Source of the DNA: Mytilus edulis
Lineage: Eukaryota
Length of the DNA: 64,000 bases
Assembly: GCF_963676685.1 (NCBI RefSeq)
Contig: NC_092351.1
Span: 25,358,001-25,422,000, forward strand
Direction: 5' to 3'
Shown here: in pieces, positions 6,164-60,273 of the stretch
Position numbering within the stretch: position 1 is the stretch's first letter
Layout: every line of letters begins with the position of its first letter
Translations under genes and position numbers: made by a program
Notes under the pieces: generated by a model
Seen by the model: the letters and a program-made list of their open reading frames with translations, nothing else
Databases searched by the model: none
What the model was told of the DNA's origin: nothing

Positions 6164-6468
6164 TAGTTATCAAAGGTACCAGGATTATAATTTAAAACGC
6201 CAGACGCGCGTTTCGTCTACACAATACTTATCAGTAACGCTCAGATCAAGATAGTTATAAAGCCCTACAAGAACAGAGCATTGAAAACCCAAAATTCCAA
6301 AAAGCTGTTCCAAATACGGCATAGCTATTTATTCCTGGGGTAAGAAAATCAATAGTTTTTCGAAAAATTCAAAGTTTTGTAAAATGGAAATTTACATTAT
6401 AAAAAAATGACAATGTATAATTGATATTCATGTCAACTCCGAAGTGCTGACTACTGCGCTGGTGAAAC
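6164..6468 (-). mobile_element. Retrozyme-like repeat copy; hammerhead motif 6198-6240 with mutated core (CUGAUAA)
   Basis: Reverse complement reads ctgataa-gtattgtgtagac-gaaa-cgcgcg-tc-tggcg. Confidence 0.7.
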
Positions 6469-6486
6469 CAAAAATTTTAAACTGTT

Positions 6487-6742
6487 AAATAAAATTGAGA
6501 AAGGAAATGGTGAATATGTCAAAGCGACAACCACCCGACCGTAGAGCAAACAACAACCGAAGGCAACCAATGGGTCTTCAATGTAGCGAGAATTCCCGCA
6601 CCCGTAGGTGTTCTTCAGCTGAACCGTAAAATATGCATAATAGTACAGTGATAATGGACGTCATACTAAACTCCGAATTATACACAAGAAACTAAAATTT
6701 AAAATCATACAACACTAACAAAGGATAGAGGCTCCTGACTTG
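6487..6742 (-). mobile_element. SINE-like interspersed repeat (family with aaataaaattgagaatggaaatgggg end)
   Basis: Similar to copies at 17903-18425, 19490-19870, 39865-39945 and 52640-52785. Confidence 0.7.
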
Positions 6743-7550
6743 GTTGTTTATTTCACTTGAATTTCTAAAATCAATGCAAATACAGAGAGTTATTCCTCTT
6801 TAAACAATTATATCAGAATTCCAAAGTTACAGCGATATCATTACTTGTTGACAAAATCAATACAGTATATTTGCGTTTACTTTTTAATCTATTTATTAGA
6901 ACAAAATGTTATCGTGAAAACAAATAGGTATGTAATTTGATTTTATGAACCCATTTAACAAGGTTATAAGCCATTCAATACATCAATAAAATTGTCTAAC
7001 AATACATAGTTAAACTTTCTTTTTATTTGCTTTGTTGGCCTTTTCTGGTTGTCATACAGATCATGTATTTTAGACAATGGAAGTTTATATTGATTTGTCA
7101 AAGTATATCTAATTTGATTCAAAAACATTGAAAGTGTTAAACATTCATTTAGTCGATATTTTCGATATTAAGTTTCAGTGGAACTTTAAAGATTCTAACA
7201 GAAGGTAAGGAAACAATGCCAGGATTTAAACACAATTAATGTGATGCATGAACATGTATTCAAAATATTCATTTGCATATGTACAATTAGTAGAATAATG
7301 TATCAATCTAATATTACTTTCTCTAAATTAATTAAAACGAAATTGAATGCCAAAGTCAGTGAAATTTTAAAGATCTTCTGACTCTTCCAGAGCATTGGAG
7401 ATTATCTCGGTTTTCGGTGGGGATCTCTTGTCCAGTCTGTAGTTTTCGATGTAGTGTTTTGCGGACTTGTTTGTCTTGTTGTCGTCGTTTTTTAGTCAGT
7501 TTCTCTTCAGCTGATTAATTTTGAATATCTCTTTTTGAATGATAAAAAGG

Positions 7551-7706
7551 TGAAATTTGGCTAAGCGCGCCTCAATTATAAACACCGCAATGAACCATTT
7601 CAGTTATTTTTTGTAACATTCACATTCGTAATAATTGGTTACGTGCTCACTTAGAGTTGCTTAGCATTGTGATGTTAATAATTGAGGCGTGCTTAGTCCA
7701 ATTTCA
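7551..7706. mobile_element. Small MITE / inverted repeat
   Basis: tgaaatttggctaagcgcgcctcaattat ... ataattgaggcgtgcttagtccaatttca (imperfect arms of about 40 bp). Confidence 0.7.
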
Positions 7707-8080
7707 TGATTTCCGCCAAAATTTATGTGATTTAGTTTATATAAGGAGAGAGGACCCGGAAAGGGTAAATAATGCTCTCTTATATGAAACTGCACTCGTC
7801 TTAGACTGAAGTTCTGACGACAAAATTGATGCCATACATAACTAGTCTTTCATGATTATCCAGATGTTCATAATTGTTTTGTATATTTTCTACTCTGATC
7901 CTTGATGTCTTCGCAGCCTTTTTCATTGTCATTATAGTTCACTAGCAATGTTTCGCAAACGACCTTTACACTGTCAAATTCTTTGAATACTTAGAATTTG
8001 GCACAACTTTTTGGAAATTTTGGATCCTCAATGCTCTTCAACTTCGTACTTCTTTGGCTTTATAAATATTTTGATATGAG

Positions 8081-8122
8081 AGTCACTGATGATTCTTATA
8101 TAGACGAAACGCGCGTCTGGCG
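8081..8122 (+). ncRNA. Type I hammerhead ribozyme motif in retrozyme-like repeat (7995-8156); first stem II pair disrupted
   Basis: agtca-CTGATGA-ttcttatatagac-GAAA-cgcgcg-TC-tggcg. Confidence 0.65.
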
Positions 8123-8212
8123 TACTAAATTATAATCCTGTTACCTTTGATAACTATGTTAACTATTTACGTAAATAACCTATCAGTTAAGCAGGTTTCT
8201 TCTTGTTCTTCC

Positions 8213-18900: not shown

Positions 18901-19024
18901 AACAAAATATATATTTTATAAACAGAAAGATAAAGGACGGAAAGTAAAGGTTCCTGTCTGGCCAGCTCTTTACCTACAAGAGAAGGGACAGCTTATAACA
19001 AAAGGTTTTGCAAAAGGATACTGA
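9738..19024 (+). CDS. Gene B: MIEAP-like domain protein, 446 aa; join(9738..9929,10613..10810,11287..11525,11808..12003,15810..15917,17422..17538,18734..19024)
   Basis: Seven GT-AG exons total 1341 nt in one frame (phases 0,0,2,0,0,0); exon-by-exon similarity to A and C; C-terminal WYMCILDPPM...VWPALYLQEKGQLITKGFA. Confidence 0.9.
10613..10810 (+). CDS. Gene B coding exon 2
   Basis: tttcag acceptor, gtgagt donor, 66 codons. Confidence 0.85.
11287..11525 (+). CDS. Gene B coding exon 3 (S/P/Q-rich linker plus coiled coil)
   Basis: ttgcag acceptor, AG|gtagta donor, phase 2. Confidence 0.85.
11808..12003 (+). CDS. Gene B coding exon 4
   Basis: aaag|G acceptor, gtaagt donor; SPTKIADKFKNLYEVEW. 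Confidence 0.8.
12085..13250. repeat. Diverged ~320-bp direct duplication in gene B intron 4 (about 12085-12400 and 12925-13250)
   Basis: Shared blocks agatctgaaaatg...gctaaatacaccaac...gttattacttcggtac...gcatgtgcctgtcttaagtcatgt. Confidence 0.75.
13251..14534 (+). mobile_element. Non-autonomous Helitron-like element with internal ~210-bp tandem repeats
   Basis: 5' A|TCTATACTAT, 3' imperfect hairpin then CTAG; three units starting atagtaaaaagcaaacacac at about 13834, 14044 and 14252; related sequence continues to about 15060. Confidence 0.65.
15810..15917 (+). CDS. Gene B coding exon 5
   Basis: caacag acceptor, gtaaga donor; YGYTWCKKLAAEQLNEL. Confidence 0.85.
15978..17028. mobile_element. 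Non-autonomous DNA transposon, TGT...ACA termini, 4-bp TSD (Ginger-like)
   Basis: TIRs of about 110 bp (tgttccggaccatatgagtatttgg...); ttac on both flanks; arms built from the palindrome gaccatacgcgtatggtc. Confidence 0.85.
17422..17538 (+). CDS. Gene B coding exon 6
   Basis: ttgcag acceptor, gtatgt donor; QQARDFRKQMAVSSVDAVVD. Confidence 0.8.
17903..18425 (-). mobile_element. SINE-like repeat, longest copy of the family in this window
   Basis: Similar to 6487-6742 and, inverted, 19490-19870. Confidence 0.7.
18734..19024 (+). CDS. Gene B last exon: MIEAP-like C-terminal domain
   Basis: ttgcag acceptor; within ORF 18728-19024; TGA stop. Confidence 0.9.
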   Translation, partial: RFKIEVIKDELGMDTQQLSPTVIKFIHKAAELLWYMCILDPPMYIAWPEYNEPFDTTKYIFYKQKDKGRKVKVPVWPALYLQEKGQLITKGFAKGY

Positions 19025-19489
19025 ATTTTATCATATATATTTGTTTAATAAGATCAGGGCGACTGTTTCTGCATATGTCGTGTTGATTTTGAATTAATTA
19101 CCATGTTATTGCTTTTAATGGTTGACATTAATTACTTTTTACTGGTTATATTACAATTCCATAAAATTATTTTACAAGATTATAGGTGTTATTTCCGCTA
19201 TGCATTGGTTTCCTAGTAAAACAAATACAAAGCAAAGCATTGTACAGCCGACTTGTTTTACTGTATTTTGTTACCAATCAGGTGCTTTCTTGAATAAAGA
19301 TGTAGAGTTGGAGGGTTATTTAGCGAAGAAGGCTAATAACTTGTAAAAGATATACATGTCGTTATTTTGAAATGATGGTATTTCAGATGATATGGTTTTA
19401 TTTAGCTTAATAATAAGACCAAATATTATAGCGATAGTAGCATTTTTCTGAATTTATCATTCATTTTGTTGACCTTAATATAACTTCTT

Positions 19490-19870
19490 TTGAACTGAGT
19501 TTTACTGTGTGGTTGTTTTTACGACATTGGCTAGAGGTGTAGTGGGAGGTATTAGGTCTCAAAAACATTTTTTAACCCTGCCGCATTTTTACGCCTATCC
19601 CAAGTCAGGAGCCTCTGGCTTTTGTTAGTCTTGTATGATTTTTAATTTTAGTTCATTTATATATTTCGGAGTTTAGTATCATGACGTTCATTATCCCTGC
19701 ACTAGTACACATTTTTGTTTAGGGGCAAACTGAAGCAAACCTCCGTGCGTGCGATTTTTCTCGCTGTATTGAAGACTCATTGGTGGACTTCGAAGTTGTT
19801 TTCTGCTTTTTGTTTGGTTTGTTGTCTCTTTGACACATTCAGTCACCATTTCCATTCTCAATTTTATTTT
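19490..19870 (+). mobile_element. SINE-like repeat (same family, opposite orientation)
   Basis: Reverse-complement match to about 17903-18270. Confidence 0.7.
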
Positions 19871-20067
19871 GTATCTTTTATAATGCATTTTGTTAATGAG
19901 GTCAAGGGCAATGGACATGTGACAGACGGTAACTTCGTAACATATGGCATCTATATACAAAGTATGAAGCATCCAGGTCTTCCACCTTCAAAAATATAAA
20001 GCTAAAAACGAAATTAGTAAACTCCGCCACTGCCGCCGAATCACTATCCCTATGTCAAGCTTTCTGT

Positions 20068-21545: not shown

Positions 21546-21559
21546 GCTATGTCGCCGAT

Positions 21560-36800: not shown

Positions 36801-39800
36801 AAGCTGAAATCTACTCTTTTATAATAAATTTAGTTAAGTTTTTAAGTAAATTGTGATAACGAAATCTGACTAAAGAATTTACTAGCATATATTTCTAAAA
36901 CAGAATAATAAAATGCTTCTTATCACGTAAAACTTTCTTGCCTTGAATTTTGTTATAAAAAAGTTTGAAAACATGAATGAATTCGCTTAAGTTGCAGAAA
37001 AAATAACATTGTAGTTTCTAAAACAGAATAATAAAATGCTTCATAAAACTGTCTTGCCTTGAATTTTGTTATAAAAAGTAGAAAGGTTTGAAAATATGAA
37101 TTAATTCACTTAAGTTGCAGAATAAATACTGTTCCGCTAACGTAAGAAAATCTTACCATGTTATGTGGACAAATCTGGTCACCTTCCTTTTTAGTTCATT
37201 TGATTCGTAGATTTTTTTATGAGTAAAAGTGGTGATTATCACATTTGTGTTTGAACAACAGTAAACTACTATTGTTTCTCATTTACAAGATATATACCAG
37301 TATTTATTAGCGTATGTTGTATACATATCATCCTTAACATATACGAAATATGTGACACTGACTTGACGTTAGGTAAATAATCAATTGTATATCAAATGTG
37401 TAAAACCATTATGTTAATATTTATTAAAGCATATGTCGGCAACAGTTGGCACTAACCAGCAACCTGCAGTCTCACAGTCAAGAGTTTCGAACTTAGCAGC
37501 TACTGTTCATACAACTGGAAGACAACAAAGTGTTGATTCTGCATTTCCACAAAATCACAATAATGTTAAAAGCATGGAAGAAGAAAACGCAAGACTAAAA
37601 GTATTAGTTGATAAGCAAGGCCAAGATATAATTTCGTTACAGAAAGCGAACAGAGACAACGAGCGGGTTATCGATGAATTAAGAAACAGGTACGTGTTCA
37701 CTTGATACATTTATTTCTATTGTAGTGAGAAGATATTCACTGTTTACACAGTTTATATAGTTATTTCATTGGTTATAGTAATAAGCCAGAATTATAGGTT
37801 TCATTACGAGTAAGAGTTGGATATCGCTTGATATGAGCTCGAGTTATTTAATTTCAAAACTATGATAAACGAGCCTTGTTGAAATAAGAAAAAAGTGAGA
37901 ATTTATATCAAGCGATATCCAATCCTCAAAAATTCTGTATTTGACCCCCCCCCCCCCCCCCCCCCCGGAGCGAAACATTTTTTTGTCTTTTGCACACATA
38001 AACATTTTGACACAATGAGTCTGTTTCTTGTGTCAACCATTAACAACTGACGCTTTAAAGTCTTTTTTTTCGTTCAAGAGTAGAATACAATATATTTTCT
38101 AATGATACATTTGAACGTTTTATATATAATTGACGACATTACAAATTACTGTTTCCAAGGGTGAAACGTAGTCCAATGAAAGTGATGCACTCAAATTGAC
38201 TTAACGAATTTTCAATAGAAATTTAAAAATTGCGTTACACTCTACAAAATAAGACAATGAGAGTAAAGTATTTGTCGTATTATTTAGGGAACGACCATTT
38301 GATATTCTGAAGGGACAAGGGGGATTTGTTTTGGCTCGGTTATTTATTTTTCTAAACTAAGAGGACATATTATTTATTTTATGCACTGTTGAAGCAAGAT
38401 TTTTCGTTTTCATTAAAACAAAGGACTGATTATTTATTTTCACAACTATATTTAAAATATTTGAAAACATACAATTTTTAAATTCACTAAAATGATACAC
38501 ATATAAGCGAGTCAAAATGTACCATTTAATCAGAATTAATCATCATCCTCTGCAAAAATGAATCTTCTGATTTCCAACTGCATTTGCCATGTACACATGT
38601 ATTGCATATATACATGGCATTAAATTTGGGCTGTAACTAGACTCTTTTAAAAGTTGTTATGCCGATCGGAGCGAGGCTTAAAAAAATTACTTAGGTATTG
38701 GGAGCCACTAAAGGCCCCGAGAAGCTATAGAACAAATGATGCAAAATCATGCTTTCCGGGCGTTTCCCAGACCCTTTCTTAGTCTTGAAACGCAAGTTCT
38801 GTTTAAAAAGTTTTTGACAATATTTGGGTCTCAAAGCATAATGTATCTAGATATAGTGTAAGACTTAAGTTTTAAGGGCCAACATCAAAATACAAATGTG
38901 TAGGATAACGCAAAAATGTAATTCACATATTTAAGTATGTGGCTGCTGTTTTGGTATGTTTTTTTGGGTGTTTATGCTTACATAATTTAAATCTTTTGCA
39001 CCTGTAAGTCATAATATGTTTCTATATAAAATTAAGCCAAGAGGGGGCTGAATATCACTGATACAAATATGCCAAGTAAGTTTTTATAACATATTTCAAT
39101 TACAACTTGATTAACTCCTAACTGGGATACAATTTAAAGTACAAGTTAAGTTGTAAAAATTAGCTAAAAGTCTTAAATAAAATAGAACTCATGATCAAGT
39201 TTAAAACAAAATTACTTAATTACAAAAGAAATGAAACTCTCAGAGAATACAGAAGGGTAATCAATGAACAAAAGACAAACCCGGGAACAGATAAAACAAG
39301 AAACAATAACACAAATATCACATGAAACATGGACCGTGAAAAAACAGGGGCTAAGTCCGAGAACGGAACTTTCTTGCATGACAATCGCCGTGAAAACAAT
39401 TTGATAAGGAGACAAGCTTTTGGTTTTGAATTTTCCTACATAAGGCAATTGCCTAAATGGAGTTACGACCCTTTAATAAAAAGTGAGGTAAGTGTTCCAG
39501 AGAATATAATAAAATAAAACCTATTTTCAGACATTTGAATAATATTTTTCTTTTATAATTAAAAGATTTGGGAAGTGTTCCCCGATTATTTTTTCGAAAA
39601 AAGATGTGATTTTGTGAAGAATCTGGTGCAATCTCATACTTTTGAATAACATTCTTAAAATTGCTTAAAAGACTTGTCGAGTTAGTTATTTTCATTAATT
39701 TGTAAGTCGGATTATTTATTTTCAAATTTCCATTTTTTTGGTGATTTTCAAGGCTGAATTATTTTTTTAAATCCTCCTCCCACCTCCCCTCACCAAACCC

Positions 39801-45800: not shown

Positions 45801-48800
45801 GAAAATTTTATTCTACGTTTGTACTATCCTGAACTTATTTCATAAATACTGAAAAACTCTTTTTCACTCGTACTGATAAAAGGGTTGCGTTATTTTTTAT
45901 TTGTAAAATAATATTTATTGACCAATTTATTATTTTGTATACCACATTATGTTGCTCTAGTTGCACACAATATGTGCCTGGGTGTATTAAACTTGTCTTG
46001 ACTTGATAATAAACGATTGAAATAGATACAGTAAACACATTTAAAGCTAACAAGTTGTTATTGTTGGCATTTTTTTTATATGTATAGACCAATGGGAATA
46101 GATCATATTAATAATAACGGTATTGAAGACTTGATCCCTTTAATAGGCCACTAGTCTAAATACCACATGTTAAGGTACACGGTAAGATATATTCGTTACA
46201 TAGTGTGCTAGTGACCAAATACGATACATATGGTGTCCTAGTGTAATAATACGATATACATGATATATATTGGGTCAGTAAATTCCATATGAGGATTCGA
46301 GTTTCTTTGGCAGACTTTATAAAGCTTAAACAGTATCTGAGCGAAAAAGTTGATGAGCCAGGGATATGTCAAAAAAGAACTTTTCATAGTTTATTCTGTC
46401 AAGTCATGATACGGCATCTTCTTTTTTCTTATATATATCTGAGTAGCAGCCATATCATGTGCTGTTGGTATATAATATTGCTTCTAAGGTGGGGGATATT
46501 GATAATTTCATAATAAAAATTGTCTCGTTTGTCATAGATCCTGGACTAGTACTGAGATGACCGCTTATTTCAAATAAGAGGTATGAGTCTAAACATAAGG
46601 CAGTGGAAGCCGTGTCTATTGTTTTTTTTTAATTTCTAGTTCTTGTGGATATATTAATGGAACCAAATCAGAAAAGTTGGGATTGTTAATTTTAAAGAAC
46701 GTCATCACTTTATCTGAATGTGAATTTAAATGATCTGGCTTCTTTGATCTTCATGTTTTTGACAAGAGTATGAAGGAACCCCAACTCAACAGAACATACG
46801 AAGAGGTCGACAAGGAGAGCCACACCGTTTGTTCCCATATAGGAATGCCAAAAAAATAAACCAGGTGAGATCGTTTATTTGTTTGATGATGTTTCAGAGC
46901 ATTTTGTAAAATGATTTTTCCATATTTTTGAAAGATAATGTTTTTTGTTTTCTAGGTTAAGTGGGTTTGCCAGCAAACAACTTACAGAAGGAAATCCAAA
47001 TTTTACGGATTTGAGTGATAAAAACAGACCAACAAAGATTGCAGAAAACTTTCATGCCGTTTATGATGACGAATGGACAAACGCATTAGAAGTATTGTCT
47101 TCACCGAGGAAGGGAAAAATGATAGAAGATGAAGCAATCCACAAATTAATGAATCTTGTGAAGGTATGAACCAGTAATATTCTAGGTTACCTGAAGGTTG
47201 TATCAAATTGATAAAATGGTCAGATCATATTTGGAACTAAAATGGTCGCTATGGCAAAATAGAAGATTTACGAATATTACTCATGATACTATGGTGTATT
47301 TGATAAGCAGAATATTATTCTTGCATGAATTACGTTGAATGATTGCCTAGTATCCTTTTGCTATTTACACCACTGGGTCTATACCACTGTTGGTGGACGT
47401 TTCGTCCCCGAGGGTATCACCAGCCCAATAGTCAGCACTTTTGTGTTGGCATGAATATAATTTATATGATTATGTTTATAAATTCACTGTTTGAAAAAGT
47501 ATGAATTATTCGAAATATCTGTACTAAGTAATTTCTTATCCAAGGCACATATCACCTTAGTCGTTTTTGGCACAACTTATTGGAATTTTGGGTCCTCAAT
47601 GCTCTTCAACTTTATACTTGATTGGCTTTCCAAGTATTTTGATCTGAGCGTCACTGATGAGTCTTGTGTAGACGAAACGCGCGTCTAGCGTATCAAATTG
47701 TAAGCATGATACCTTTGATAAATATTCCTGATAATCCATTTGATTGTTTTGCTCCTAACTTCACCTAGTATAGAATAAAGGATATAAAGGAGGACCCAAT
47801 GATGAAAGAAAAATTGTATATCGAATACGCCAATTTTTGACTTTGGACTTCAAATTGTAGTGGTTTTGTTTTAAGAAGGGAAAGGTGCATTATCTTTAAT
47901 TTTGTCAATGTAAACAAGTGGTTCAAATCATAATATTACGGCTTCAATGAAATGATTTTAACACATGTTGGTGATGATGATGTATTTGTACATCTTACTT
48001 TACTCAACATTCTTGCTGCTTACAATTATCTCCATCTATGATTAATAAATAAAGGCAACAGTAGTATACCGCCGTTCAAACTTATAAATCCATGGACAAA
48101 AAAACAAAATCGGGGCAACAAACCAAAACCGAGGGAAGCGCATCAAATACAAGAGGAGAACAACGACACAACACCACAATGTAACACATATGAACTTGGC
48201 CCAGTAGTTTCAATGGAAAATGATAGTAAAAATTTACAAATTTTATGAAAATTTAAAAAAATTTCCTTAAAATTACCAATTCAGGGGCAGCAACCCAACA
48301 ACCGGTTGTCCGGTCCATCTGAAAATTTCAGGGCAGATAAATCTTGACCTGATAAACAATTTATCCTCGTCAGATTTTCTGTAAATGTTTTGGTTTTTGA
48401 GTTATAAGCCAAAAACTGCATTTTACCCCTATGTTCTATTTTTAGCCGTGGCGACCATCTTGGTTAGATGGCCTGGTCACCGGACACATTATTTTAACTA
48501 GATACCCCTAAGATGATTGTGGCCAAGTTTGGTTAAACTTGGTCCAGTAGTTTCAGAGGAGAAAATTTTTGTAAAAGTTAACGACGACGGACGACGGACG
48601 CAAAGTGATGAGATAAGCTCACTTGGCCCTTCGGGCTAGGTGAGCGAAAAATTATCCATTGTCAAGTAAAACACTCAATAATTATATTATAAATTTGCTT
48701 CGAAATGCTGTTGTAAGGTTTCTAATACGAAACTTTGTGATATTTACGTGATCATGATTTTTTACTGGGCAGAAAGTTGTCCATGCGAGTTCAATGCAAT

Positions 48801-51800: not shown

Positions 51801-54800
51801 ACTCAACGGTGATATATCTAAATGGCAACCAATGTTGACCATATTTAAAATTGTCGCGTTTGTGAACTTCATTTAAATAAAAACAGACATAGAAATAGGC
51901 AGATGTGTTGTGAGTGCCAATGAGACAACTCTCCATCCAAATAACAAATTTTAAAAGTAAACCATTATAGGTCAATGTACGGCCTTCAACACGGAGCCTT
52001 GGCTGTAACCTAAATTTGTGAAAAACACATTATGAAACATGAAGATGTGTTTATGCGACCAGAACATAATGCTTTTTAGACTAACTTATATTTAAAGCGG
52101 TTCATAAAATGATTTTGAAACAAAGATATATAACTTTAGAATGTGTAAACTGCATTTTAAATTTGATTTGAAGTGTTAGTCATTCATGAATCTGGTGATT
52201 CTTCACTTCAACCATCAGTGTATAATAAAATACATCTGACCTAATATTATTTGGTAAAACATATTTAATGTGACAAAATTGCGAAAACATTCGCGGATTT
52301 TGATAGTATAGAGTATTGAATTAATTTATCGTTTAATTGATCCTAATCTGTTATTAAGATAATGCTTAAGTTAACTTTAAATATGTTCTTTATATAGGAT
52401 ATGGCACATAATTTTGTGTTTACAATATTGAACGTTATATTTAGCAGCAACCAGGTGGAAAAGACGATGGAAAAGTGTTCAGGCCTGGTTTAGAGCCTAA
52501 GATAAAGCTTTTGCGACGTGAATATTGTATGGAACCTATTGCAAACATCACAGAGGTTTGTGTCTACAATTACCATTTTGAGATAAGCACTTGGCGTTGA
52601 TGCATTTAATATATTGAAGGGTTAACTTGAAGTGAATCATTTAAGAGGCTAGATGAAGTCCACCTCCGGGTGCGGGATTTTTTCGCTGTGTTGAAGACTC
52701 TGGTGGTCTACGGCTGTTTTCTACTCTATGTTCGGGGGTTGTTGTCTCTTTGACATATTCACCATTTTCATTCTGAATTTTATGTAGTATCCAAATATAA
52801 AGTTGAACGGGATTTCATGAATTTTGAGTACTCTAAAGTTATTTAAATACAACGATCATAGATACCAGGATTAAATTTTGTAATCACGCCAGACGCGCGT
52901 TTCGTCTACAAAAGACTCATCAGTGACGCTCGAATCCTAAAAAGTTAAAAAGGCCAAATAAAGTACGAAGTTGAAAAGCATTGGGGACTAAAATTCCTAA
53001 AAGTTTTGCCAAATACAGCTAAGGTAATCTTTTCCTGTGGTAAAAAAACCTAAGTATTTCAATAATTCAAAAGTTTTGTAGACAGTTGATTAATCAAAAA
53101 TGCCTATATCAATGATACATAAATGCAACAGTAGTATACCGCTGTTCGAAACTCATAAATCGATAGAGAGAAAAAAAAAACAAATCCGGGTTACAAACTA
53201 AAACTGAGGGAAACGCATCAAATATAAGAGGAAAACAACGACCCAACAGAAACGCAACATTAAAATGTAACACACACAGAAACGAACTATAATATAACAA
53301 TGGCCATTTTTCTGACTTAGTTCAGGACGTTTTAAGAAAAAAATAATTCATGTCAGCACAAAAGTGCTGACTACTGAGCTGGTGATACCCTCGGGGGATT
53401 AAAACTACACCAGCAGTGTCATTGACCCAGTACTTGTAAATAAACTCATCATAGATACCAGGATTAAATTTTGTAATCACGTCTGACTCGCGTTTCGTCT
53501 ACAAAAGACTTATCAGTGACGCTCGAATCCAAAAAAGTTAAAAGGTCAAATAAAGTACGAAGTTGAAGAGCATTGAGGACCAAAATTCCTAAAAGTTTAG
53601 CCAAATACAGCCCAGGTCATCTATCGCTGAGGTAGAAAAACCTTCGTATTTCAAAAATTCAAAAGTTTGTAAACAGTTAATTTATAAATATGACTTTATC
53701 AATTTATAATTATATAATTTTTAATATATAATTCAGCTTAGGTTTTTTTCTGGTGAAAAGAGTAAATATTGAAAATGTGGTATTATTGCCAATAAAGCAA
53801 TTAAAAAAAAACCCAAGGAGAGTGGATAATTAATGGCATTGTACAATCTTGCATTTTACCTATTTGTTTTAAATGAGTTTTCAATCTTTAACGCAAAATA
53901 GAGTTTTTGATATTGAAAATGAGGTAGACATTCTGTATTTGTAACTTTTTATATGTATATCATCGATTTGAATTATTATCCGAATGATATTTGTTGTGTC
54001 TTATTTCAAGTCCCATATTTTGTTTTACTCACAAACGTAGACAGGCGCTTTTTTAGTAGAATATCGTCATACATTACTCCAATGATCTTAAAGAAAGTAT
54101 TCACAGACCTTCATTCACAGATTAACATTATATACCTCCTTTTTCTTTTTTTATTCAAATGATATATGGATTTCTTATATCAAAAAATAATTCGTAAACA
54201 CTATTAAGATCTATAAAGACACCAACTATTTGTTGTTTATATGACTGCAACGTACTGATCATCGACGTTGAGGTTAACCTTTTAATCGGGGCACATCGAA
54301 CTCAACAAACATTTTTACCATGCATGTTTTCAACAATATGCATGATGATGAGTCTCATTTAGTGTTTGAAAATCGATGAAAACAGGACGGGGTTGTGGTA
54401 ACGAGAATTATATGATATCCACAGTCATTTGTACTACATATATTCCATAAATTTCTACATACTCTCGATTTCGTTAGTCAAACTTTCGAACGAATCACCC
54501 CTCGTCTAAAAGCTTCCTCGATGTCACTGCTGGTAGAGTGTTTATTCCCCGAGGGTATCACTAGTCCAGTAGTCAGCACTTCTGTGTTGACATGAATAAT
54601 CATAGATATGGTCATAATTATAAATGTATTGTTTACAATACTTTGAATTTATGAAATACTAAGGCTTTTCTTCCGCAGGAATTAATTATCCTTGCTGTAT
54701 TTGGGAAACCATATATGAACTTTTGGTCCTCAATGCTTTTCAACTTCGTTCTTTATTTAGGCTTGTCAACTGTTTTTGATTTGAGCGTCACTGATCAGTC

Positions 54801-56057
54801 TTTTGAAGACGAAACGCGCATCTGACGTAAATACAAAATTTCCATCCTGATATCTATGATGAGTTTATTCATATATCCCCAGCTTTCAATTTTTGTTTTG
54901 TTTTGTTTAAACGTTTCCAATACAGGTATACGTATTCTGAAAGGCTCTTTCAGCGCTCCACATTTGTAACAAAATGTTTCATTTTCATTGTCTGGTACGG
55001 CTTCAGATTGAGTGTTCTTTTTGAGCTTATCACTAGAAGAAGGTGCATTAAAATGATTTATTACACACTTTTTAACATTTTTTGTTCATTAATTCAGTTA
55101 ATTTAAGAAACTTGAATTTCAACTTATTAGGGAAAGTTGACCCTAGATGGTTATAATTATTTAATTTGTCGGGTATATTGTTTACACACAACTTAATTTT
55201 TTTGTTTGTTTTTAACACTCCTGATAAATGTGAATCTAGCGCTTTAGACACACAAAATGTATTATCCGCGCTTTCAACAGCGAGTGGTGTACAGTGGAAG
55301 AATGACAAAACGACTTTAAGGACAGGCAATCATACTTTAGCATATCATGGACTTTTTAAGTTTCTTGCATTCATTATTAATTCAGAATACGTTGACTGTT
55401 CTGCAAAGTCTGAACACTTTTAGTAAATATGACCCATGTTGTGTATTTTTTTAAATTTAAATACATGCATAGTTTGGAATTTGGTATGTAATAAAAGATT
55501 AGATATCAATCAAACGACGCAAGTTTTCCTCAAATATACATTACGAGATCACCACAAAGAGTTCAGAGATGTACAGACTTAACACATCAAACACTAGCAA
55601 GACAGTCTTCACAACTAGATGCGATTCGAAAAAAAGATACTAAAAATCAGCAAAAGAAAACCACGAACGACAATTATACCAACAAAAGACTTCATCTATG
55701 GAAAGTCAAAATCCTGCATCAACTGTTTCTTTAAAGCTTATAAACCTCGATTATAGAATGATATTGTATCTTTTACTTTTTCAGAAATTTAAGAGAACAA
55801 GTGAAGATTTCAAAATAATGCAAAAGTACCCAGAAGTAGTTAAATATATAGAAAAATGTACAGAACTTTTCTGGCTTATGCGAACGATTGATCCCCCAAT
55901 GGTACTGAAATGGCCAGAAGGTGGCGAAGTCTTAAACGTTACTTTATATAACCATTACAACAAAAAGGGTGATAAGGTTTCATACGCTGTCTGGCCTGCT
56001 GTATTGTTACATGAAGGAGGAGCAGTAATGTATAAAGGGTTTGCCAAACCACAATAG
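27658..56057 (+). CDS. Gene C: MIEAP-like domain protein, 429 aa; join(27658..27813,32299..32493,37430..37689,46956..47163,50051..50137,52445..52555,55785..56057)
   Basis: Seven GT-AG exons total 1290 nt in one frame, with the same phases as gene B; each exon aligns by eye with its B counterpart; LSDKNRPTKIAENF and WLMRTIDPPM...VWPAVLLHEGGAVMYKGFA motifs. Confidence 0.88.
31035..31292. mobile_element. Short Helentron/HINE-like fragment
   Basis: tttttatgctcc...(gtcc)n microsatellite...cttgttt arrangement. Confidence 0.5.
32299..32493 (+). CDS. Gene C coding exon 2: FSKFIREYK...LRTDLYRALRER...EFYFLFRLSEEYDLLE...NQ
   Basis: Polypyrimidine tract plus ttag acceptor, CAG|gttagt donor, 65 codons. 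Confidence 0.8.
33590..33900. repeat. Fragment of a DNA-transposon end rich in (tg)ctgcag repeats
   Basis: Starts cactgaaaaaa; many tgctgcag/ctgcagca motifs; no matching right end found. Confidence 0.5.
34014..34055 (+). ncRNA. Hammerhead motif with mutated core (CUGAUUA), retrozyme fragment
   Basis: cgtca-ctgatta-gtcttttgtagac-gaaa-cgcgcg-tc-tggcg. Confidence 0.55.
34258..35219. mobile_element. Degenerate TGT...ACA non-autonomous DNA element with tgtcc/ggaca repeats
   Basis: Imperfect ~45-bp TIRs tgtaagacataatagtgtcc... / ...ggacattattaaattctaca. Confidence 0.55.
35225..35406. repeat. Short interspersed element made of (t)cggga repeats
   Basis: About 9 ttcgggat-like motifs in 180 bp. Confidence 0.55.
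35410..35830 (-). mobile_element. tRNA-derived SINE-like repeat (tRNA-like head 35648-35740)
   Basis: - strand gccaaggTGGTCGTGTGGtctagcgcg...GGTTCGAATCCcgg gives Pol III A and B boxes; the acceptor stem does not close. Confidence 0.65.
36255..36822 (-). mobile_element. Degenerate Penelope-like 3' fragment (same family as 1885-2390)
   Basis: Reverse complement of 36715-36820 encodes a frameshifted DFSF.IVNFPFLCSNIPVAP..GVYI.QLIRYS. Confidence 0.6.
36890..37125. repeat. ~122-bp tandem duplication
   Basis: tttctaaaacagaataataaaatgcttc...cttaagttgcagaa present twice. Confidence 0.75.
37430..37689 (+). CDS. Gene C coding exon 3 (Q/S/T-rich linker plus coiled coil)
   Basis: taaag acceptor, AG|gtacgt donor, phase 2; ORF 37433-37705. 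Confidence 0.8.
38287..39829. mobile_element. Non-autonomous PIF/Harbinger-like element (TTA TSD)
   Basis: Perfect TIRs gggaacgaccatttgatattc / gaatatcaaatggtcgttccc with tta on both flanks. Confidence 0.8.
40641..41330 (+). pseudogene. DIRS gag-like ORF1, frameshifted
   Basis: RQKLIKLTDSSELGWRVGKEYTTYPIADDSEDEKKM and degenerate knuckle CFNRGNKRHWANDC. Confidence 0.8.
41500..43320 (+). pseudogene. DIRS RT / RNase H / methyltransferase-like ORF, with stops and frameshifts
   Basis: FDIRSAYHH, VLPFGI, MFLDDGL; FCDASD, SSTWREL, TDNQNV, ADKLSR; WGPYTIDRFA...DAFSQNW...N*LVPPP...SAPFWP. Confidence 0.88.
43334..44356 (+). pseudogene. DIRS tyrosine recombinase, frameshifted
   Basis: GFLRYDEL, SKTDQYRQG, LHSLRAGSATAAA, RHGRW and KDGY supply the R-K-HxxR-H-Y residues. 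Confidence 0.88.
45159..45560 (+). mobile_element. Degenerate LINE ORF1-like fragment
   Basis: ELQWRSMNNNIIISGI...VHRF...IMTKFVSLKDKQLV...KLKGTNISV.EQFP...RRKNLY resembles the L1/L2-type ORF1 RRM-CTD. Confidence 0.7.
46956..47163 (+). CDS. Gene C coding exon 4
   Basis: tctag acceptor, AAG|gtatga donor; LTEGNPNFTDLSDKNRPTKIAENFHAVYDDEW. Confidence 0.9.
47649..47690 (+). ncRNA. Type I hammerhead motif with intact core and one stem I mismatch, in retrozyme-like copy 47362-47723
   Basis: cgtca-CTGATGA-gtcttgtgtagac-GAAA-cgcgcg-TC-tagcg. Confidence 0.7.
47960..48650. mobile_element. Helentron/HINE copy (family of 20808-21545) interrupted by a SINE-like fragment at about 48045-48188
   Basis: Long similarity to 20885-21545, including (gacg)n and the terminal hairpin. 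Confidence 0.75.
50051..50137 (+). CDS. Gene C coding exon 5: EIYKFCCSTATDQTLNIAMNILKPYAIDT
   Basis: ttttgtag acceptor, gtgagt donor, 29 codons; matches the Y-x-F/W-C-x3-A-x2-Q pattern of A and B. Confidence 0.8.
50185..51248. mobile_element. Helentron/HINE-like element carrying a ~191-bp tandem array
   Basis: 5' palindrome gggttccgcggaaccc; units with cttctggatactatcttatgatca at 50666, 50857 and 51049; (gac)n; terminal hairpin ttcgactaaagtcgaa. Confidence 0.75.
52445..52555 (+). CDS. Gene C coding exon 6: QQPGGKDDGK...IKLLRREYCMEPIANITE
   Basis: ttag|cag tandem acceptor, GAG|gtttgt donor, 37 codons. Confidence 0.75.
52856..53705 (-). mobile_element. Head-to-tail retrozyme-like dimer (monomer about 365 nt) with a 228-bp SINE-like insertion at 53118-53345
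   Basis: Two hammerhead motifs at 52887-52928 and 53480-53521; tandem repetition of the flanking sequence. Confidence 0.8.
52887..52928 (-). ncRNA. Intact type I hammerhead ribozyme motif
   Basis: Reverse complement cguca-CUGAUGA-gucu(uuugu)agac-GAAA-cgcgcg-UC-uggcg: stem I, stem II, full core, GUC site, short palindromic stem III. Confidence 0.8.
54786..54827 (+). ncRNA. Degenerate hammerhead motif (CUGAUCA) in retrozyme-like copy 54525-54870
   Basis: cgtca-ctgatca-gtcttttgaagac-gaaa-cgcgca-tc-tgacg. Confidence 0.5.
55785..56057 (+). CDS. Gene C last exon: MIEAP-like C-terminal domain
   Basis: ttttcag acceptor; within ORF 55698-56057; TAG stop; AATAAA at 56207. Confidence 0.9.
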   Translation, partial: KFKRTSEDFKIMQKYPEVVKYIEKCTELFWLMRTIDPPMVLKWPEGGEVLNVTLYNHYNKKGDKVSYAVWPAVLLHEGGAVMYKGFAKPQ

Positions 56058-56906
56058 AAAATTTTAGTTTACAGAACTTTGTCCATAAATACTGTACATA
56101 TTACTTTATTTATTAGATGTTCTTTTTTTTTTATTATTAAACTTGTTGCACATTTCTAACTACAGCTATAATATTGTTAGATTTATCTGAAGCGTTTTTG
56201 TAAAACAATAAAAATACATCAAAGCTTTCATGAATATTTCAGATTTCTTGTACCTGTTATCAATTTTCGGAATTTATTCCATTTTACCTTACCTACAATT
56301 TAAGTATATAAGATTCTGTCTATACTAGACTTCAATTTGCTTCTTTCGTCGCGTCATACCATCTAGATATTTAGGGATGAAAGTCAAAATTAATAACTGA
56401 AATAGTTCCAGGGATATATTTCTGTTGGTGTTTGAATTCGACTACTTGGATAAATCATATTGAATCTACCTATTATATATAAAACGTGTGTGTGAATGGT
56501 CTTTTTATTCGAAATAACGAATGCGTATAATATAGGATATAGAGTTAGATAGTCAACACGATATAAAAATTTAAACGTAAAAGTCACTCGAACTCGAACA
56601 TCTCAAATACAACAAGTTGAAGATTGCCATCACGACAAGCACATGAAATTCCTCTTCAAGAAAACTTAACATTCAACAGAGGAACCTGAAAAGACATTAC
56701 AAAAATAATTTCATTACAAATACTGCATCTTTATAACTACACGTATAAGACAGATAATTTAAGTTTTTACAAGGACGTTTCGTGGTTGGGTTTATAAATG
56801 TATGACTTGGAAGACATATCTGATCTTATACAACTTTTGGGAATTTTGGAACCTCAATGCTCTTCAACTTTGTACTTGTTTGGCTTTTTAACTATTTTGA
56901 TCTGAC

Positions 56907-56948
56907 TGTCACTGATGAGTCTTTTGTAGACAAAACGCGCGTCTGGCG
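56907..56948 (+). ncRNA. Degenerate hammerhead motif (GAAA changed to AAAA) in retrozyme-like copy 56829-56985
   Basis: tgtca-ctgatga-gtcttttgtagac-aaaa-cgcgcg-tc-tggcg. Confidence 0.5.
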
Positions 56949-57725
56949 TATTAAATTATAATCCTTGTACCTTTGATAACTATTTACTATTTTAAAGGCT
57001 CACAGTAAATTTTGTAAACTACTTTCATGTTTAAAAAGACACACCAAAAATATTGACATCGATAATTCTGGCGATATAACATTTGAAACTAAAATGGTAC
57101 CTCGAGTATAGTAACGTTTGAACGAAATGCAGTGTAAAACCTTCATATGTATATACTATGACAAAAGTAAATTTACACTCGACAAAAAACTCATTAAGTA
57201 TTGCATATTTATAATTAGCCTGACGCAAAGTTGACCTGACTAAAATCGGCAACTCTTGTTATGTCCCTTTGGTCATAAAACTAACAATTCTACGTACTTT
57301 TACACCCCTGATGTTCAAAAGCGTAGTTTTTAGCGTTCCTGATACCGCGCTGAAGTACGTACATTATTCATTTTTTATTATTCAAAATTCAATAATGAAT
57401 AACTAAATAGTTCACTATTCACTTTTCAATGTTAAGTGATGAATAATGAATGATGAAATAGTTTATATAATTTCATTATTCAAGTTGAAGTGATGAATAG
57501 CGAAATAAAGATAAAAAAAAAAATGTATGACACTATAGCTATATCTCTTATTTCTAAATTCGTCATTTTGATGTTATCTAACAAATATTCAAATCAATAT
57601 CAGAAAAAAAAAACACTCTTTAAATCTTTAATCTTATTTACTTATTTAGTTTCGGGGATAAACTAGTGGGGTTTCCTAACTATTTTTAACAGAAATTCCT
57701 TGGTTGAATGTATGGACGACCTCAG

Positions 57726-58546
57726 TACCAGAACATATATATCAAAATTAAAACACTCTACGTTGTCTTCTTTTATTTTCACTGGACCTTTGCTATTCTT
57801 CATCCTCTGATTAAAGATATAACAAGTCAACTGTGCAGCAATGACCATAAGAGGGGTAACGGAGGACCTAAATGGCAAAATACGCATGAAAATTAAGAAA
57901 TAGTCAATTTTAAATAATGAAATAGATATTTTGAATTATGGAATAAACTGCTGTGACCCTTCAGCCCCTAATTACAGATATATCTTATACCTTATTCGAA
58001 ACCTTATTAAGATTATTTTGCCATTTAGGTCCTCCGTAACCCCTCTCATGGTCATTGCGGCACATAGTGTTTATTCTCAGTTTATTACTCTATCAATAAG
58101 CTTTAATTTGGTGTATATGTTTTTCCTTAATTAGGAGCAGACGGCTTTCAGCAGTCCATTCCATTATTCAAAATAAACTATTTCTCAATGTTCACGCGTA
58201 TTTCGATATAAGTCCTCTAATATGCGTTGCGGAACGTATTGACTATATACATTTTGTTCCTCTGTTAATAAGCTTTCAAATGAGGTATATACCTGTAGGT
58301 ATATCTGTAATTAGGGGCTGAAGGGTCATAGCAGTCCGTTCCATTATTCAAAATATCCATTTTATTATTCCAAATTGGCTATTTCTTAATTTTCACGCGT
58401 ATTTTGGTCCTATGTAACCCCTCTAATGGTCATTGTTGCACAATCGACTTGTTATATCTATAGTCAGATGATGAAGAATAGCAAAGTTCCAGTAAAAATA
58501 AGAAAGACAACGTAGAGTATTTTAATTATATATATATGTTTTGGTA
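57726..58546. repeat. Foldback-like inverted repeat with ~255-bp imperfect arms
   Basis: 57726-57982 is the reverse complement of about 58300-58546; partial extra copies lie between the arms. Confidence 0.8.
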
Positions 58547-59807
58547 TAAATTACTTGGATGACAAATCTTGCAGTTTTTCTAAAGATGAATTTGTTGTAT
58601 GAGAACTAATAGTCGCGTTTTAAAATGTTAAAGTTTGAAATGACAGATGAACTATCTACAATACTAGGAATGAGGAACATACATATTTTTCCCTAAAGTA
58701 TCCCAACTCTCTTCATAAGATTATAATCGTAAAAGATCCCAACTGTAAGAAATACTGATAGCACAGGTTGACAATCTACAATAATTCTGCATGCTATATA
58801 AGAAAGAAAAAAATCTTAAACAATTTTAATGTTCGTGCATATTCGCTTAGAGTATAAAATTAACAGCTATATCAAAATATAACTAAATCCTTCGCTTATA
58901 GTTTTCTATTTTCTTCTATCATAAGTAAAATTTTGGTTAATTACCAACCACTTTGTCTACTGTTCTGAATTAAAATACAAAGACTGTTTTTGCACTGGCA
59001 TATATAATTATATAGGTCAATATCTTTACAAAATCCTTTTGTAGTCAATATCATATTGTGGAAAATGACTAGCAAAGATCAATTTTTATGTCACTGAAGA
59101 CAAAAGGTACTAAAACAAATTCTGATCATGATTCAAAGAATTTTCCTGAGGTGGTTCTGAAGAGCCTCTTGAGATTGATATACAAATATAAAGCTGTCGT
59201 CAATGTCACCATTCAATACGCTGTCTGTCTGAAATATAACTGCATAATCAATTGTTAAAGATAATGCTAAGCATATATTCTGTAACTACATGAATACAAG
59301 TATGGCTGGTACTAATAAAATAAAACAAGGAATTCAAAAGAGGGGCGAAAGATACCAGATAACCAATAAATAGAAAATAAACTGCCAATGTCATGGCTAA
59401 AAAGAAAAAAGACAAACAGACAAACAGACAAATAAAAAGTACACAAGACATAAAACATGTAATATAGAAAACTGAAGACTAAGCAACACGAACCCCACCA
59501 AAAACTGGGAGTAGAATTTTGCTAAATTCATAAACACTAATTTAAAGTAGTTAGATCAAATCAGGAATGTCATGGTAGTACATGTAGGTATTGTTTAATC
59601 GTAAATTTTCAGAAACAAATGAATATCATTTAAAGTCAGCTTAAGCAGATTTCGCAGTAAGTCTACTCATGATCGCCTCTTATCGTCTGTCTTCGTCGTC
59701 TGTTAACTTTTGCAAAAGTCTTGTCTTCGAAATTATTGTGTGAAATTGAAACCATTACATATCATTTTGATAACAGTTATCAAACGTACCAGGATTATAA
59801 TATAATA

Positions 59808-59849
59808 CGCCAGAAGCGCGTTTCGTCTACATAAGACTCATCAGTGATG
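59808..59849 (-). ncRNA. Hammerhead motif with altered stem III / cleavage triplet
   Basis: Reverse complement catca-ctgatga-gtcttatgtagac-gaaa-cgcgct-tc-tggcg. Confidence 0.5.
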
Positions 59850-60273
59850 CTCAGATCAAAATAGTGATAATATATTGATAAACAAAATTTAAGGGTTTAC
59901 AATTACACTGTAAAAAAAAACCCAACAAGGAACACGTCAGAATGGTAATTTGATTTTGCGCGTTTATTTGTTATATTATTCTAACCTTATTGTATCAATT
60001 TCACGCAAAAAATACCAGATGAATCATAAGTGAAATTCATGTGAAATTCATGCAAAATTCACGCCTCACGGTACCACATGTTAATGAAGGACCTAACTAT
60101 ATGATGAGAACCATGAGAGTGTGTTAAGGATGACATAGGCGGCTATTAAGGGAACTTTTGGACACGAAAATATACCATACATTTTCAAATTTGATGAATA
60201 ATTCTAAACAGTAACTAATTACTAACAGAATCTTCCTAATCCACATAATTTGATATCTCAGTAAGTTACCTAA

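Follow-up and report, generated by a model that had tools for sequence, protein, structure and literature searches.

The retrozymes of the mussel Mytilus edulis, non-coding repeats that carry a hammerhead ribozyme, are probably copied into the genome by the reverse transcriptase (RT)-endonuclease of one family of Penelope-like Naiad elements, Naiad-1, which would recognise a 70-nt block common to both and start synthesis 5-7 nt upstream of it. The Naiad enzyme is the likely copier because retrozymes and Naiad-1 both stop at the same point before the same 70-nt block. The repeat itself is already known, and what is added here is a likely helper and its signal: both the review by the discoverers of these repeats (PMC7761336) and a 2026 preprint treat as open which enzyme and signal insert animal retrozymes. 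The same review describes retrozyme repeats as free of any conserved motif that would point to a helper, whereas here such a motif was found; a literature search did not find a retrozyme-Naiad link through a shared block.

Retrozyme insertions in the window and arrays elsewhere in the genome

In the window, i.e. the whole 64-kb stretch of DNA that was analysed, self-BLAST and alignment recovered the nine hammerhead motifs of the original prediction at the predicted places and strands, each within the same repeat. The nine motifs do not, however, correspond to nine copies, as had been assumed, but to eight separate insertions of one 354/364-nt non-coding repeat (Table 1), because motifs 52887 and 53480 belong to a single dimer of 1.76 units, into which 225 bp of another repeat have been inserted. 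This split dimer is the only insertion with two motifs, and none of the eight forms a clean tandem. Two stop-to-stop frames of at least 90 aa overlap copy 54786, both running mostly outside it.

Table 1 Retrozyme insertions, their hammerheads and Naiad-1-type remnants in the window. Unit positions (+n) are nucleotides counted from the hammerhead cleavage site.
Feature	Position	Strand	Unit span	Hammerhead	Remarks
Naiad-1-type Penelope-like element, decayed 3' end	1881..2384	+			RT C-terminus and 3' UTR; likely helper family
Family A insertion	6161..6469	-	+89 to +42	6197-6240, G8>A, stem II mismatch	5'-truncated
Family A insertion	7996..8157	+	+234 to +40	8080-8123, G10.1-C11.1 pair broken, stem I mismatch	
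Family B insertion	34007..34098	+	+321 to +48	34013-34056, G8>U	
Naiad-1-type element, decayed 3' end	36255..36829	-			
Family A insertion, one whole unit	47361..47726	+	+37 to +41	47648-47691, core intact, stem I mismatch adjoining cleavage site	
Decayed copy of the block common to the Naiad-1 5' start	47372..47431	+			Predicted stem-loop, candidate RT-binding signal
Family B 1.76-unit insertion, 3' part	52844..53117	-	+140 to +48	52886-52929, only fully intact one in the window	
Family X, another 5'-truncated repeat	53118..53342	-			Later insertion, splits the family B dimer at unit position ~+140
Family B 1.76-unit insertion, 5' part	53343..53711	-	+137 round to +142	53479-53522, G8>A	Naiad-shared block 53371-53431
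Family B insertion	54518..54869	+	+60 to +46	54785-54828, G8>C, broken stem III pair	Begins inside the Naiad-shared block
Family A insertion	56830..56987	+	+241 to +44	56906-56949, G12>A	
Naiad-1-type element, short 3' UTR remnant	59336..59512	-			
Family A insertion	59772..59863	-	+304 to +41	59807-59850, core intact, stem III and stem I mismatches	

Rather than the nine working ribozymes that had been implied, the window holds one intact motif: the other eight have core or helix defects, with changes at G8 or G12 in five and helix defects in three. The window insertions are old and mostly 5'-truncated, and their defects show them to be passive remnants. With one of nine motifs intact and no insertion (0/8) holding two intact ribozymes, they are unlikely to yield circles themselves.

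The covariance-model search proposed for these motifs gave a divided result: Rfam Hammerhead_1 (RF00163) matched five of the nine (the best, 52886-52929, with 32.5 bits and E = 3e-4; those at 47648, 59807, 34013 and 8080 with 24-28 bits), and a unit from a young array scored 33 bits (E = 1.3e-6), so that neither any window motif nor the young unit tested reached the gathering score of 34 bits. We regard this as a near miss that weakens the formal Rfam call, not the fold. The bare pattern CTGATGA-N8-30-GAAA, present in four of the nine copies, is alone barely above chance in the window (4 seen vs. 1.3 expected; 7 of 100 shuffles reach 4). Across the genome, the 32-nt hammerhead core has 12,566 exact copies, compared to 0 for the reversed control. 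The type I features (CUGANGA / GAAA / UH core, stems I-III, open stem I) are found in young arrays and in one of the nine window copies (52886-52929), and the family C hammerhead carries paired changes in stems I, II and III, the ribozyme being kept between families that are 69% alike. Assignment to type I hammerheads and to the non-LTR retrozymes already reported in mussels was thus correct (PMC7229834). By contrast, obligate cleavage as dimers, also part of the original prediction, is not supported: stem III consists of two pairs closed by a GCGC tetraloop (it is palindromic, so that dimers are still possible), and the cloned M. galloprovincialis monomer, for which cleavage after GUC is published, self-cleaves at ~0.1 per min (PMC7229834).

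The predicted unit of ~365 nt describes subfamily B (360-368 nt; GC 35%) and not subfamily A (354-356 nt; GC 39%), both below 50% GC; a third family, C, has a 350-351-nt unit and 3,336 exact cores. Elsewhere in the genome, head-to-tail arrays contain 3-9 motifs at 354-368-nt spacing, with one type I hammerhead per unit; in one array, L036, units of 359 and 340 nt alternate as a higher-order repeat. In 18 of 20 arrays, units resembled one another more than they did those of the closest other array, a likeness expected from a single template, although local duplication gives the same pattern. Insertions from the window, from the sample and from selected loci gave no consistent target-site duplication; one of 20 nt is likely at L118. 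Family D, a ~540-nt hammerhead repeat, was considered as an autonomous partner and rejected, as it has no long ORF.

By unit size, family number and description, rather than by sequence, the repeat fits the non-LTR retrozyme published for M. galloprovincialis (Cervera and de la Pena 2020, PMC7229834). Common to both are non-coding tandem repeats of 350-390 bp and low GC that carry a type I hammerhead, a pair of related ribozyme families, copy numbers in the thousands and the absence of LTR, PBS and PPT; the published 353-nt construct is close to the 354 nt of family A (PMC7229834). The present repeats differ from that account in having a third family and in that most copies are shorter than a unit and truncated on the 5' side, with a single fixed end.

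A fixed 3' end and a block shared with Naiad-1

All eight window insertions end, on the 3' side, at +40 to +48. In 600 kb of genomic DNA sampled at fixed intervals, 27 of 36 non-edge pieces had their 3' end at +38 to +56, compared to 2 of 36 5' ends (binomial p = 2e-27), and 32 of 39 sampled pieces span the cleavage site. Thus, in both the window and the sample, 5' ends are scattered, whereas the 3' end is fixed past the cleavage site. Nine of the 36 sampled pieces end elsewhere, four of them at most 8 nt from the cleavage site; a linear cleaved monomer as template, which predicts ends at that site, was rejected, given that only these 4 of 36 end there.

Directly beyond the fixed 3' end lies the 70-nt block. 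Positions +46 to +115 of the family A unit match the first bases of full-length Naiad-1 at 59 of 70 positions (84%; blastn E = 1e-16), with comparable matches for families B (E = 1e-16) and C (E = 7e-19). This is the only significant match between retrozyme and Naiad-1, the next best against the 3.85-kb element having E = 0.048. Among families A, B and C, the block, ~85% identical across the three, is the best conserved part of the unit other than the ribozyme (87% of columns at +84 to +113 compared to 33-57% mid-unit). A short GGTAY motif before the end is also common to retrozyme and Naiad-1; apart from this motif and the block, no unit-wide homology to Naiad-1 of the kind expected for a pseudo-LTR, hammerhead included, was found. 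The hammerhead half of the retrozyme has no match in Naiad-1 and therefore came from elsewhere.

In Naiad-1, the block is the very start of the unit, just ahead of the ORF, and in 11 of the 12 Naiad blocks listed, the element's own 3' end directly precedes it. In terminal copies of A (n = 47), B (n = 33), C (n = 28) and Naiad-1 (n = 37), the match is 76-93% at 7 nt before the first helix of the block and falls to background 3-5 nt before that helix; all three retrozyme families and Naiad-1 end in the same register, 5-7 nt ahead of the block. In Naiad-2, a control family, the junction is a different one and nothing matches the block (best E = 1.7). A mini-Naiad, with a 201-nt unit made only of the last 72 and first 130 nt of Naiad-1 and no hammerhead, forms 5'-truncated tandem arrays at two independent places, similar in form to the retrozyme arrays.

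A stem-loop is predicted at +48 to +110, with the same predicted fold in A, C and Naiad-1 and one C-G to U-A change in a block helix between retrozyme and Naiad; over the four lineages, covariation amounts to essentially one compensatory event, that between retrozyme and Naiad. A pseudoknot was not supported (in its crossing helix, which is broken in Naiad, no change affects both sides), the block matched no Rfam family, and whole-circle folding was no better than in shuffles (z = -1.0 to -1.5). A metagenome scan for the block gave 108 stretches, of which three were copies of the same retrozymes and two were weak, with no new relatives.

Copies of Naiad-1 are 97-99% alike and have a single ORF, open for ~1,000 codons, with N-terminal GIY-YIG, CxC, DKA and RT; in L333, this natural frame occupies 2454-5453 on the minus strand. 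The Pfam matches, GIY-YIG at 135-172 (E = 0.036) and RVT_1 at 646-854 (E = 1e-4), are both under the cut-off, the CxC and DKA motifs are seen in the translations, and assignment to the Naiad clade is by domain order and motifs. No canonical hammerhead (CUGANGA...GAAA) was found on either strand of Naiad elements L332 and L333. The Naiads described by Craig et al. 2021 share with this candidate helper the N-terminal GIY-YIG, CxC, DKA, C-terminal RT and 3.4-kb body, as well as partial tandems, heavy 5' truncation and the lack of a canonical hammerhead (PMC8557442). That account describes non-autonomous partners for Chlamys, but in the sections consulted neither a structured 5' start signal nor a Naiad-dependent retrozyme or mini-element, both of which are proposed here (PMC8557442). 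The Penelope-like remnants originally noted at 1885-2390 and 36255-36822 are real and are the 3' ends of Naiad-type elements, and the shared block and end register lend support, as a class, to the Penelope-like helper suggested at the same time. Locus L091, a candidate Naiad with the retrozyme as terminal repeat, was rejected: it is the only locus joining both among 40 scored candidates, and there the retrozyme interrupts the Naiad 3' UTR.

A proposed route for retrozyme insertion and its alternatives

The route we favour would begin with ribozyme-sense transcripts of young tandem arrays, whose units measure 354-368 nt; RNA from a related or the same species shows such transcription for the family. 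Hammerheads would cut the transcript to monomers, to be closed into circles by a host ligase, as published for the M. galloprovincialis retrozyme. The Naiad-1 protein would then bind the predicted stem-loop at +48 to +110, nick AT-rich DNA and prime reverse transcription inside the RNA at +41 to +48; this step is suggested by the block and the end register that retrozyme and Naiad-1 have in common, together with how another Penelope-like RT behaves in vitro. Crossing the hammerhead junction, the RT would continue for a random length, from less than one to nine units, so that 3' ends are fixed and 5' ends scattered; this end pattern is observed, and the circular template is proposed. The copies would finally decay into passive remnants such as those in the window, as their defects show. 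A helper closer than Naiad-1 may exist among the other Penelope-like clades or the other Naiad families of the genome.

In stranded RNA runs, reads beyond the fixed end are sense-biased (~6:1), and head-to-tail joints stood at 387:52 and 355:76 in two runs; both observations fit circles and tandem transcripts alike. Most retrozyme RNA reads are only 90-95% alike to the reference. Four RNA runs contain few reads from the 5' half of Naiad-1 (depth 0-21 across its first kilobase), too few to map its start.

The circle is the weakest step, because insertion of the anole element needs no hammerhead cleavage and the ribozyme-free mini-Naiad also multimerises. Accordingly, the alternative that fares best, which we consider possible but doubtful, retains the Naiad-1 helper, its start and the priming and decay steps, with an uncut tandem or read-through transcript as template, the hammerhead a passenger as far as insertion is concerned and long arrays growing by local DNA duplication. 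It is consistent with the lack of effect of hammerhead mutants on anole element insertion in vitro (PMC11167929), the form of the mini-Naiad arrays, the higher-order repeat in L036 and the absence of a read-end pile-up at the cleavage site in the RNA runs. Against it stand the published finding that mussel retrozyme RNA is mainly circular (PMC7229834), the retention of the hammerhead with paired changes in all three stems and the likeness of units within arrays, as from one template, subject to the same reservation about local duplication.

Another reading, which we consider rather improbable, takes the block for an internal promoter or RNA-processing site at the Naiad 5' start and the fixed end for a real RNA 3' end, from which ordinary target-primed reverse transcription proceeds. 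The position of the block just before the ORF is where Penelope has its internal promoter (PMC8557442), and many non-LTR elements have a 5' self-cleaving RNA (PMC7761336). Yet the missing Rfam match speaks against such a site, the order of the block helices is unlike an HDV-like fold (by inspection against the topology of that fold), no pile-up of read starts or ends was seen at +41 to +48 in three RNA runs, and the published linear mussel RNA is of unit length, 350-400 nt (PMC7229834).

A further reading, in which the block is no more than a trace of a Naiad 5' end that was inherited or captured and the retrozyme is now moved by another Penelope-like element (e.g. a hammerhead-bearing Poseidon, Neptune or Hydra whose pseudo-LTR it resembles), appears improbable. 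Xenopus retrozymes do resemble the pseudo-LTRs of hammerhead-bearing elements (preprint 10.64898/2026.07.22.740005), and the hammerhead half is unmatched in Naiad-1; the block, however, has kept its identity in three families whereas the flanking unit has drifted, the retrozymes end in register with Naiad-1's own end, and all 16 hammerhead-descriptor matches in the 600-kb sample, the window and ten Naiad loci lie in retrozyme-type repeats. The literal original reading, in which nine active, dimer-cleaving ribozymes release a ~365-nt circle, is very improbable even with a palindromic stem III and one two-motif insertion, given the G8, G12 and helix defects, the G8>A change in the upstream motif of that insertion with 225 bp of foreign DNA inside it, and a mussel monomer that cleaves alone (PMC7229834).

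Relation to other Penelope-like elements and implications

A precedent for copying by Naiad-1 is the Anolis Poseidon element PAc (Frangieh et al. 2024), whose RT initiates inside its own RNA and needs ~60 nt downstream of the start (PMC11167929). In both systems the start lies downstream of the hammerhead cut, 3' sequence is needed and the genomic 3' end is fixed, features that we infer here from sequence. PAc is autonomous, has its own hammerhead and starts at two sites in an AC-rich stem-loop within the ORF (PMC11167929), whereas here we propose a single start zone, used in trans, in the U-rich RNA that immediately precedes a GC-rich block. The Xenopus retrozymes likewise have a sequence link to a Penelope-like element of the same genome, which in those vertebrates runs through the pseudo-LTRs of hammerhead-bearing clades (preprint 10.64898/2026.07.22.740005); in the mussel, it runs instead through the 70-nt block with which a Naiad lacking a canonical hammerhead begins, and nothing in this helper corresponds to the ribozyme half.

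We tentatively suggest, at somewhat less than even chances, a broader model in which the telomerase-like Naiad RT would accept a portable 70-nt stem-loop on any small RNA circle, start 5-7 nt upstream, roll round and write multimers into AT-rich DNA. Retrozymes would then be hammerhead circles that captured the signal, and the 201-nt mini-Naiad both a minimal substrate and a model of retrozyme birth. If this is true, RNA-templated DNA writing would gain from a cis signal that is portable and recognised by a telomerase-related RT. The question of the helper can now be put to a direct in vitro experiment, since the present result specifies a single protein for which natural open frames exist, a single RNA element of 70 nt and a start site placed within 3 nt; the 201-nt mini-Naiad offers a minimal substrate from nature, and Naiad-2 a negative control. 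A candidate helper without a canonical hammerhead parts two things that are usually tied, and fits the suggestion that hammerheads parasitise Penelope-like elements.

Hammerhead motifs and retrozyme families

All nine hammerhead motifs of the original prediction were recovered at their predicted positions (window coordinates, which also serve as motif names), and self-BLAST and alignment placed them in one repeat family. The Rfam Hammerhead_1 model matched five of the nine motifs, and the best score, 32.5 bits, was below the gathering score of 34. The loose core pattern by itself is near chance level in the window (4 observed vs. 1.3 expected); the genome (1.37 Gb) contains 12,566 copies of the 32-nt core and none of its reversed control. 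The motifs represent eight insertions, 92 to about 640 nt long and 81–97% alike to young units. Motifs 52887 and 53480 belong to a single 1.76-unit insertion, interrupted by 225 bp of another repeat. A paralogue that is 95% alike, ~31 kb farther on in the contig, is split in the same way.

G8 and G12 have well-established roles in the hammerhead. G8 is altered in four of the nine motifs (6198, 34014, 53480 and 54786), with three different replacement bases, G12 is altered at 56907, and helix defects are present at 8081, 47649 and 59808. The sole intact hammerhead in the window spans positions 52886–52929, and none of the eight insertions contains two intact motifs. The G8 changes may be due to chance or to selection against cleavage within host transcripts; an anole ribozyme is described as inactivated by G8C as well (PMC11167929).

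Young head-to-tail arrays of the retrozyme are present elsewhere in the genome, with units of 354–356 nt in family A (nine motifs in the L031 array, units 99.2–100% alike) and 360–368 nt in family B (82% alike to A). Family C units are 350–351 nt (69% alike to A; 3,336 exact cores genome-wide). This family, seen for example at L091 1–520, is very young (95–98% alike); its hammerhead has a CUGAAGA core and, relative to family A, shows paired changes in each of the three stems (I–III). The class had been expected to be a known one in mussels, and the repeat indeed fits the published description of the M. galloprovincialis non-LTR retrozyme (350–390-bp repeats); that description names two ribozyme families, and family C is a third (PMC7229834). 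According to the same account, the monomer self-cleaves at ~0.1 per min, and circles, ligated by RtcB, are abundant on northerns.

Sampling of 14 contigs at fixed spacing (60 stretches, 10 kb each) gave 39 retrozyme pieces that accounted for 1.4% of the DNA, which extrapolates to ~90,000 pieces genome-wide; the density in the window is about twice the sample average. Of 20 arrays selected for similarity, 18 have units that are more alike within the array than between arrays, as a single template for each insertion would produce, though local duplication would fit as well. One array (L036 3152–4901) alternates 359- and 340-nt units, i.e. is a higher-order dimer repeat. Family D, a ~540-nt repeat ending at (TA)n (L317–L331, e.g. 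L321 997 and 1545), has a hammerhead related to that of family C, whose stem III is closed by a CCGG tetraloop in family D; it showed no similarity to the Naiad-1 segment discussed below and may depend on a different helper.

A fixed 3′ end and the RNA reads

All eight window insertions terminate at positions +40 to +48, counted from the cleavage site, and their 5′ ends are dispersed across the unit. Among the 36 sampled pieces not cut by a stretch edge (three were), 27 have their end, and two their beginning, at +38 to +56 (p = 2 × 10−27); the remaining ends lie at most 8 nt from the cleavage site (four) or elsewhere (five). Among loci chosen by similarity, 44 of 69 pieces terminate in the same zone. 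Since copying begins ~41–48 nt past the cut and crosses it (32 of the 39 sampled pieces span the site), a cut linear monomer is ruled out as the usual template, and the template was therefore ligated or uncut. The insertions show no consistent target-site duplications.

The 70-nt segment directly beyond this end (the block) resembles the 5′ start of Naiad-1, a Penelope-like element of the same genome. For A, B, C and Naiad-1 (47, 33, 28 and 37 distinct terminal copies, respectively, pooled over loci of this genome), the match to the tandem continuation is 76–93% at 7 nt before the first helix of the block, 57–79% at 6 nt, and at background by 3–5 nt. GGTAY, located ~15–17 nt before the end, is common to all four.

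Two stranded RNA runs gave 5,427 raw reads (among 8.7 million records) and 6,135 (among 8.3 million) that map to one family A unit. Reads beyond the fixed end are ~6:1 in ribozyme sense, assuming the usual library direction, and head-to-tail joints are 387:52 and 355:76; the strand bias is absent from a third run. No pile-up of read ends was observed on the unit. Because most reads are only 90–95% alike to it, they reflect the retrozyme family at large, possibly that of a sister species, and not these copies. The 5′ half of Naiad-1 is scarce in four RNA runs.

The segment shared with Naiad-1

The Penelope-like remnants predicted in the window are real and represent the 3′ termini of one Naiad family. 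The full-length Naiad-1 unit is 3,361 bp, with natural open frames of ~1,000 codons, 97–99% alike, encoding an N-terminal GIY-YIG, CxC, DKA and RT, the architecture given for Naiads (PMC8557442); no canonical hammerhead was found inside the full-length copies examined. The block profile matches the first bases of Naiad-1, just upstream of the ORF; these hits, all on the ORF strand, are at 7 of 30 loci, with E values between 1e-15 and 1e-18, and most of the other loci are 5′-truncated. Pairwise, 59 of 70 bases are identical for A and B (E = 1e-16), with E = 7e-19 for C; no other retrozyme match in Naiad-1 was significant (next best, E = 0.048). Among 12 Naiad blocks from the first 30 loci listed by a pattern search, 11 have the 3′ end of Naiad itself ahead of them, i.e. 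form a partial-tandem junction.

A, C and Naiad-1 share one predicted minimum-energy structure of the block, a long irregular stem-loop. Over nine rows, 91.9% of cells pair, vs. 27–45% for slid partners, and one clear C-G to U-A change separates retrozyme from Naiad; this pairing weakly supports the modelled structure because the rows come from just four lineages and were themselves the source of the structure. An additional hairpin, in which A, B and C differ by paired changes, is specific to the retrozymes. A pseudoknot is unsupported, the crossing helix being broken in Naiad and showing no two-sided change, and nothing in Rfam matches the block.

Naiad-2, a second young family (4,031-bp tandem unit) with an unrelated junction, served as a control and does not match the block (best E = 1.7). 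Its ORF has an in-frame TGA (L398 7078–7080) where Naiad-1 has cysteine; both tandem units seen carry it, which fits the selenocysteine-coding Naiads described in clams (PMC8557442).

The mini-Naiad, a 201-nt unit without a hammerhead, joins the final 72 nt of Naiad-1 to its first 130 nt. It forms a 5′-truncated array of 2.9 units, 94–98% alike, on one contig (C1) and an older array (81–96% by piece), present twice via a larger duplication, on another (C12), i.e. arrays at two independent sites among five junction matches altogether. These arrays end at or near the same site as Naiad-1 and retrozyme copies, so that the Naiad-1 junction alone appears sufficient for insertion as a multimer. A different shortened unit, of 161 nt, precedes a long copy at L401 2631–2778.

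Several neighbouring repeats were also noted. Family X has GATTTATGAGTTT and GGTAT in common with the Naiad-1 3′ UTR, and is inserted at ~+140 of a family B array (L112 1337–1500), the position that it also occupies in the window, which may point to a preference for an AT-rich site. Retrozymes are inserted in the Naiad-1 3′ UTR or ORF (nested loci include L091 428–520 and L335 5591–6105), and the retrozyme insertions at window 6161–6469 and 52844–53711 each lie within 60 bp of a family Y copy. The inverted repeats at 15972–16102 and 16855–17036 resemble ends of a non-autonomous DNA transposon; MIR4380 matches at the palindromic repeats are spurious.

Coordinates of features in the window (W) and at other loci of the genome
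Feature	Position	Strand	Remark
Mini-Naiad arrays	L400 2845-3416; L404 1275-1583; L406 1235-1565		
Family X	W 53118-53342, 48037-48188, 61092-61469		5′-truncated, fixed 3′ end
Family Y	W 6487-6743, 17903-18298, 19483-19875, 39865-39944, 52641-52791		Naiad-2 3′ UTR
MIEAP exons (Pfam), three	W 3202-3498, 18698-19024, 55644-56057	+	Point to tandemly clustered gene paralogues
Coiled-coil exons	W 11215, 37418		
Decayed element	W 40449-44648	+	Gag-like, RT (RVT_1), recombinase-like frames; presumably DIRS/Ngaro-like by architecture
Its terminal repeats	W 40449-40631 / 44467-44648; 44390-44473 / 45075-45158		
TRIM-like open frame	W 61179-62372	+	Two B-box zinc fingers, coiled coil
Inverted repeats of 19-nt palindromic unit	W 15972-16102, 16855-17036; similar pair 24700-25470		
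48-bp minisatellite	W 4169-4360, 5267-5779		Flanks LINE-like remnant on both sides
LINE-like RT C-terminal remnant	W 4598-5281	−	

Naiad-1 as a putative helper

The anole Poseidon protein is reported to nick AT-rich DNA and begin reverse transcription inside its RNA, at a start that requires ~60 nt downstream and coincides with genomic ends, the hammerhead being dispensable in vitro (PMC11167929). By analogy, the Naiad-1 protein would likely bind the block, prime at +41 to +48 and run reverse transcription round the retrozyme circle. Tests around this link covered the end register in four families, Naiad-2 as a control, and the mini-Naiad. The copies with their defects, the arrays, the end pattern, the shared block and its register, and the controls are results of this analysis, and cleavage and circles are published for the family; block binding, use in trans and a circular template are inferred. 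We consider Naiad-1, with an internal start, the probable helper; a circle as the template is slightly favoured.

No account of the helper link turned up in the openly available literature covered. Within it, retrozymes and Naiads occur together only in PMC8557442 and a preprint (10.64898/2026.07.22.740005), neither of which gives the link in the passages covered, and according to the discoverers' review no motif hints at a helper (PMC7761336). The window copies are dead and the retrozyme itself is known; the proposed helper is specific and testable.
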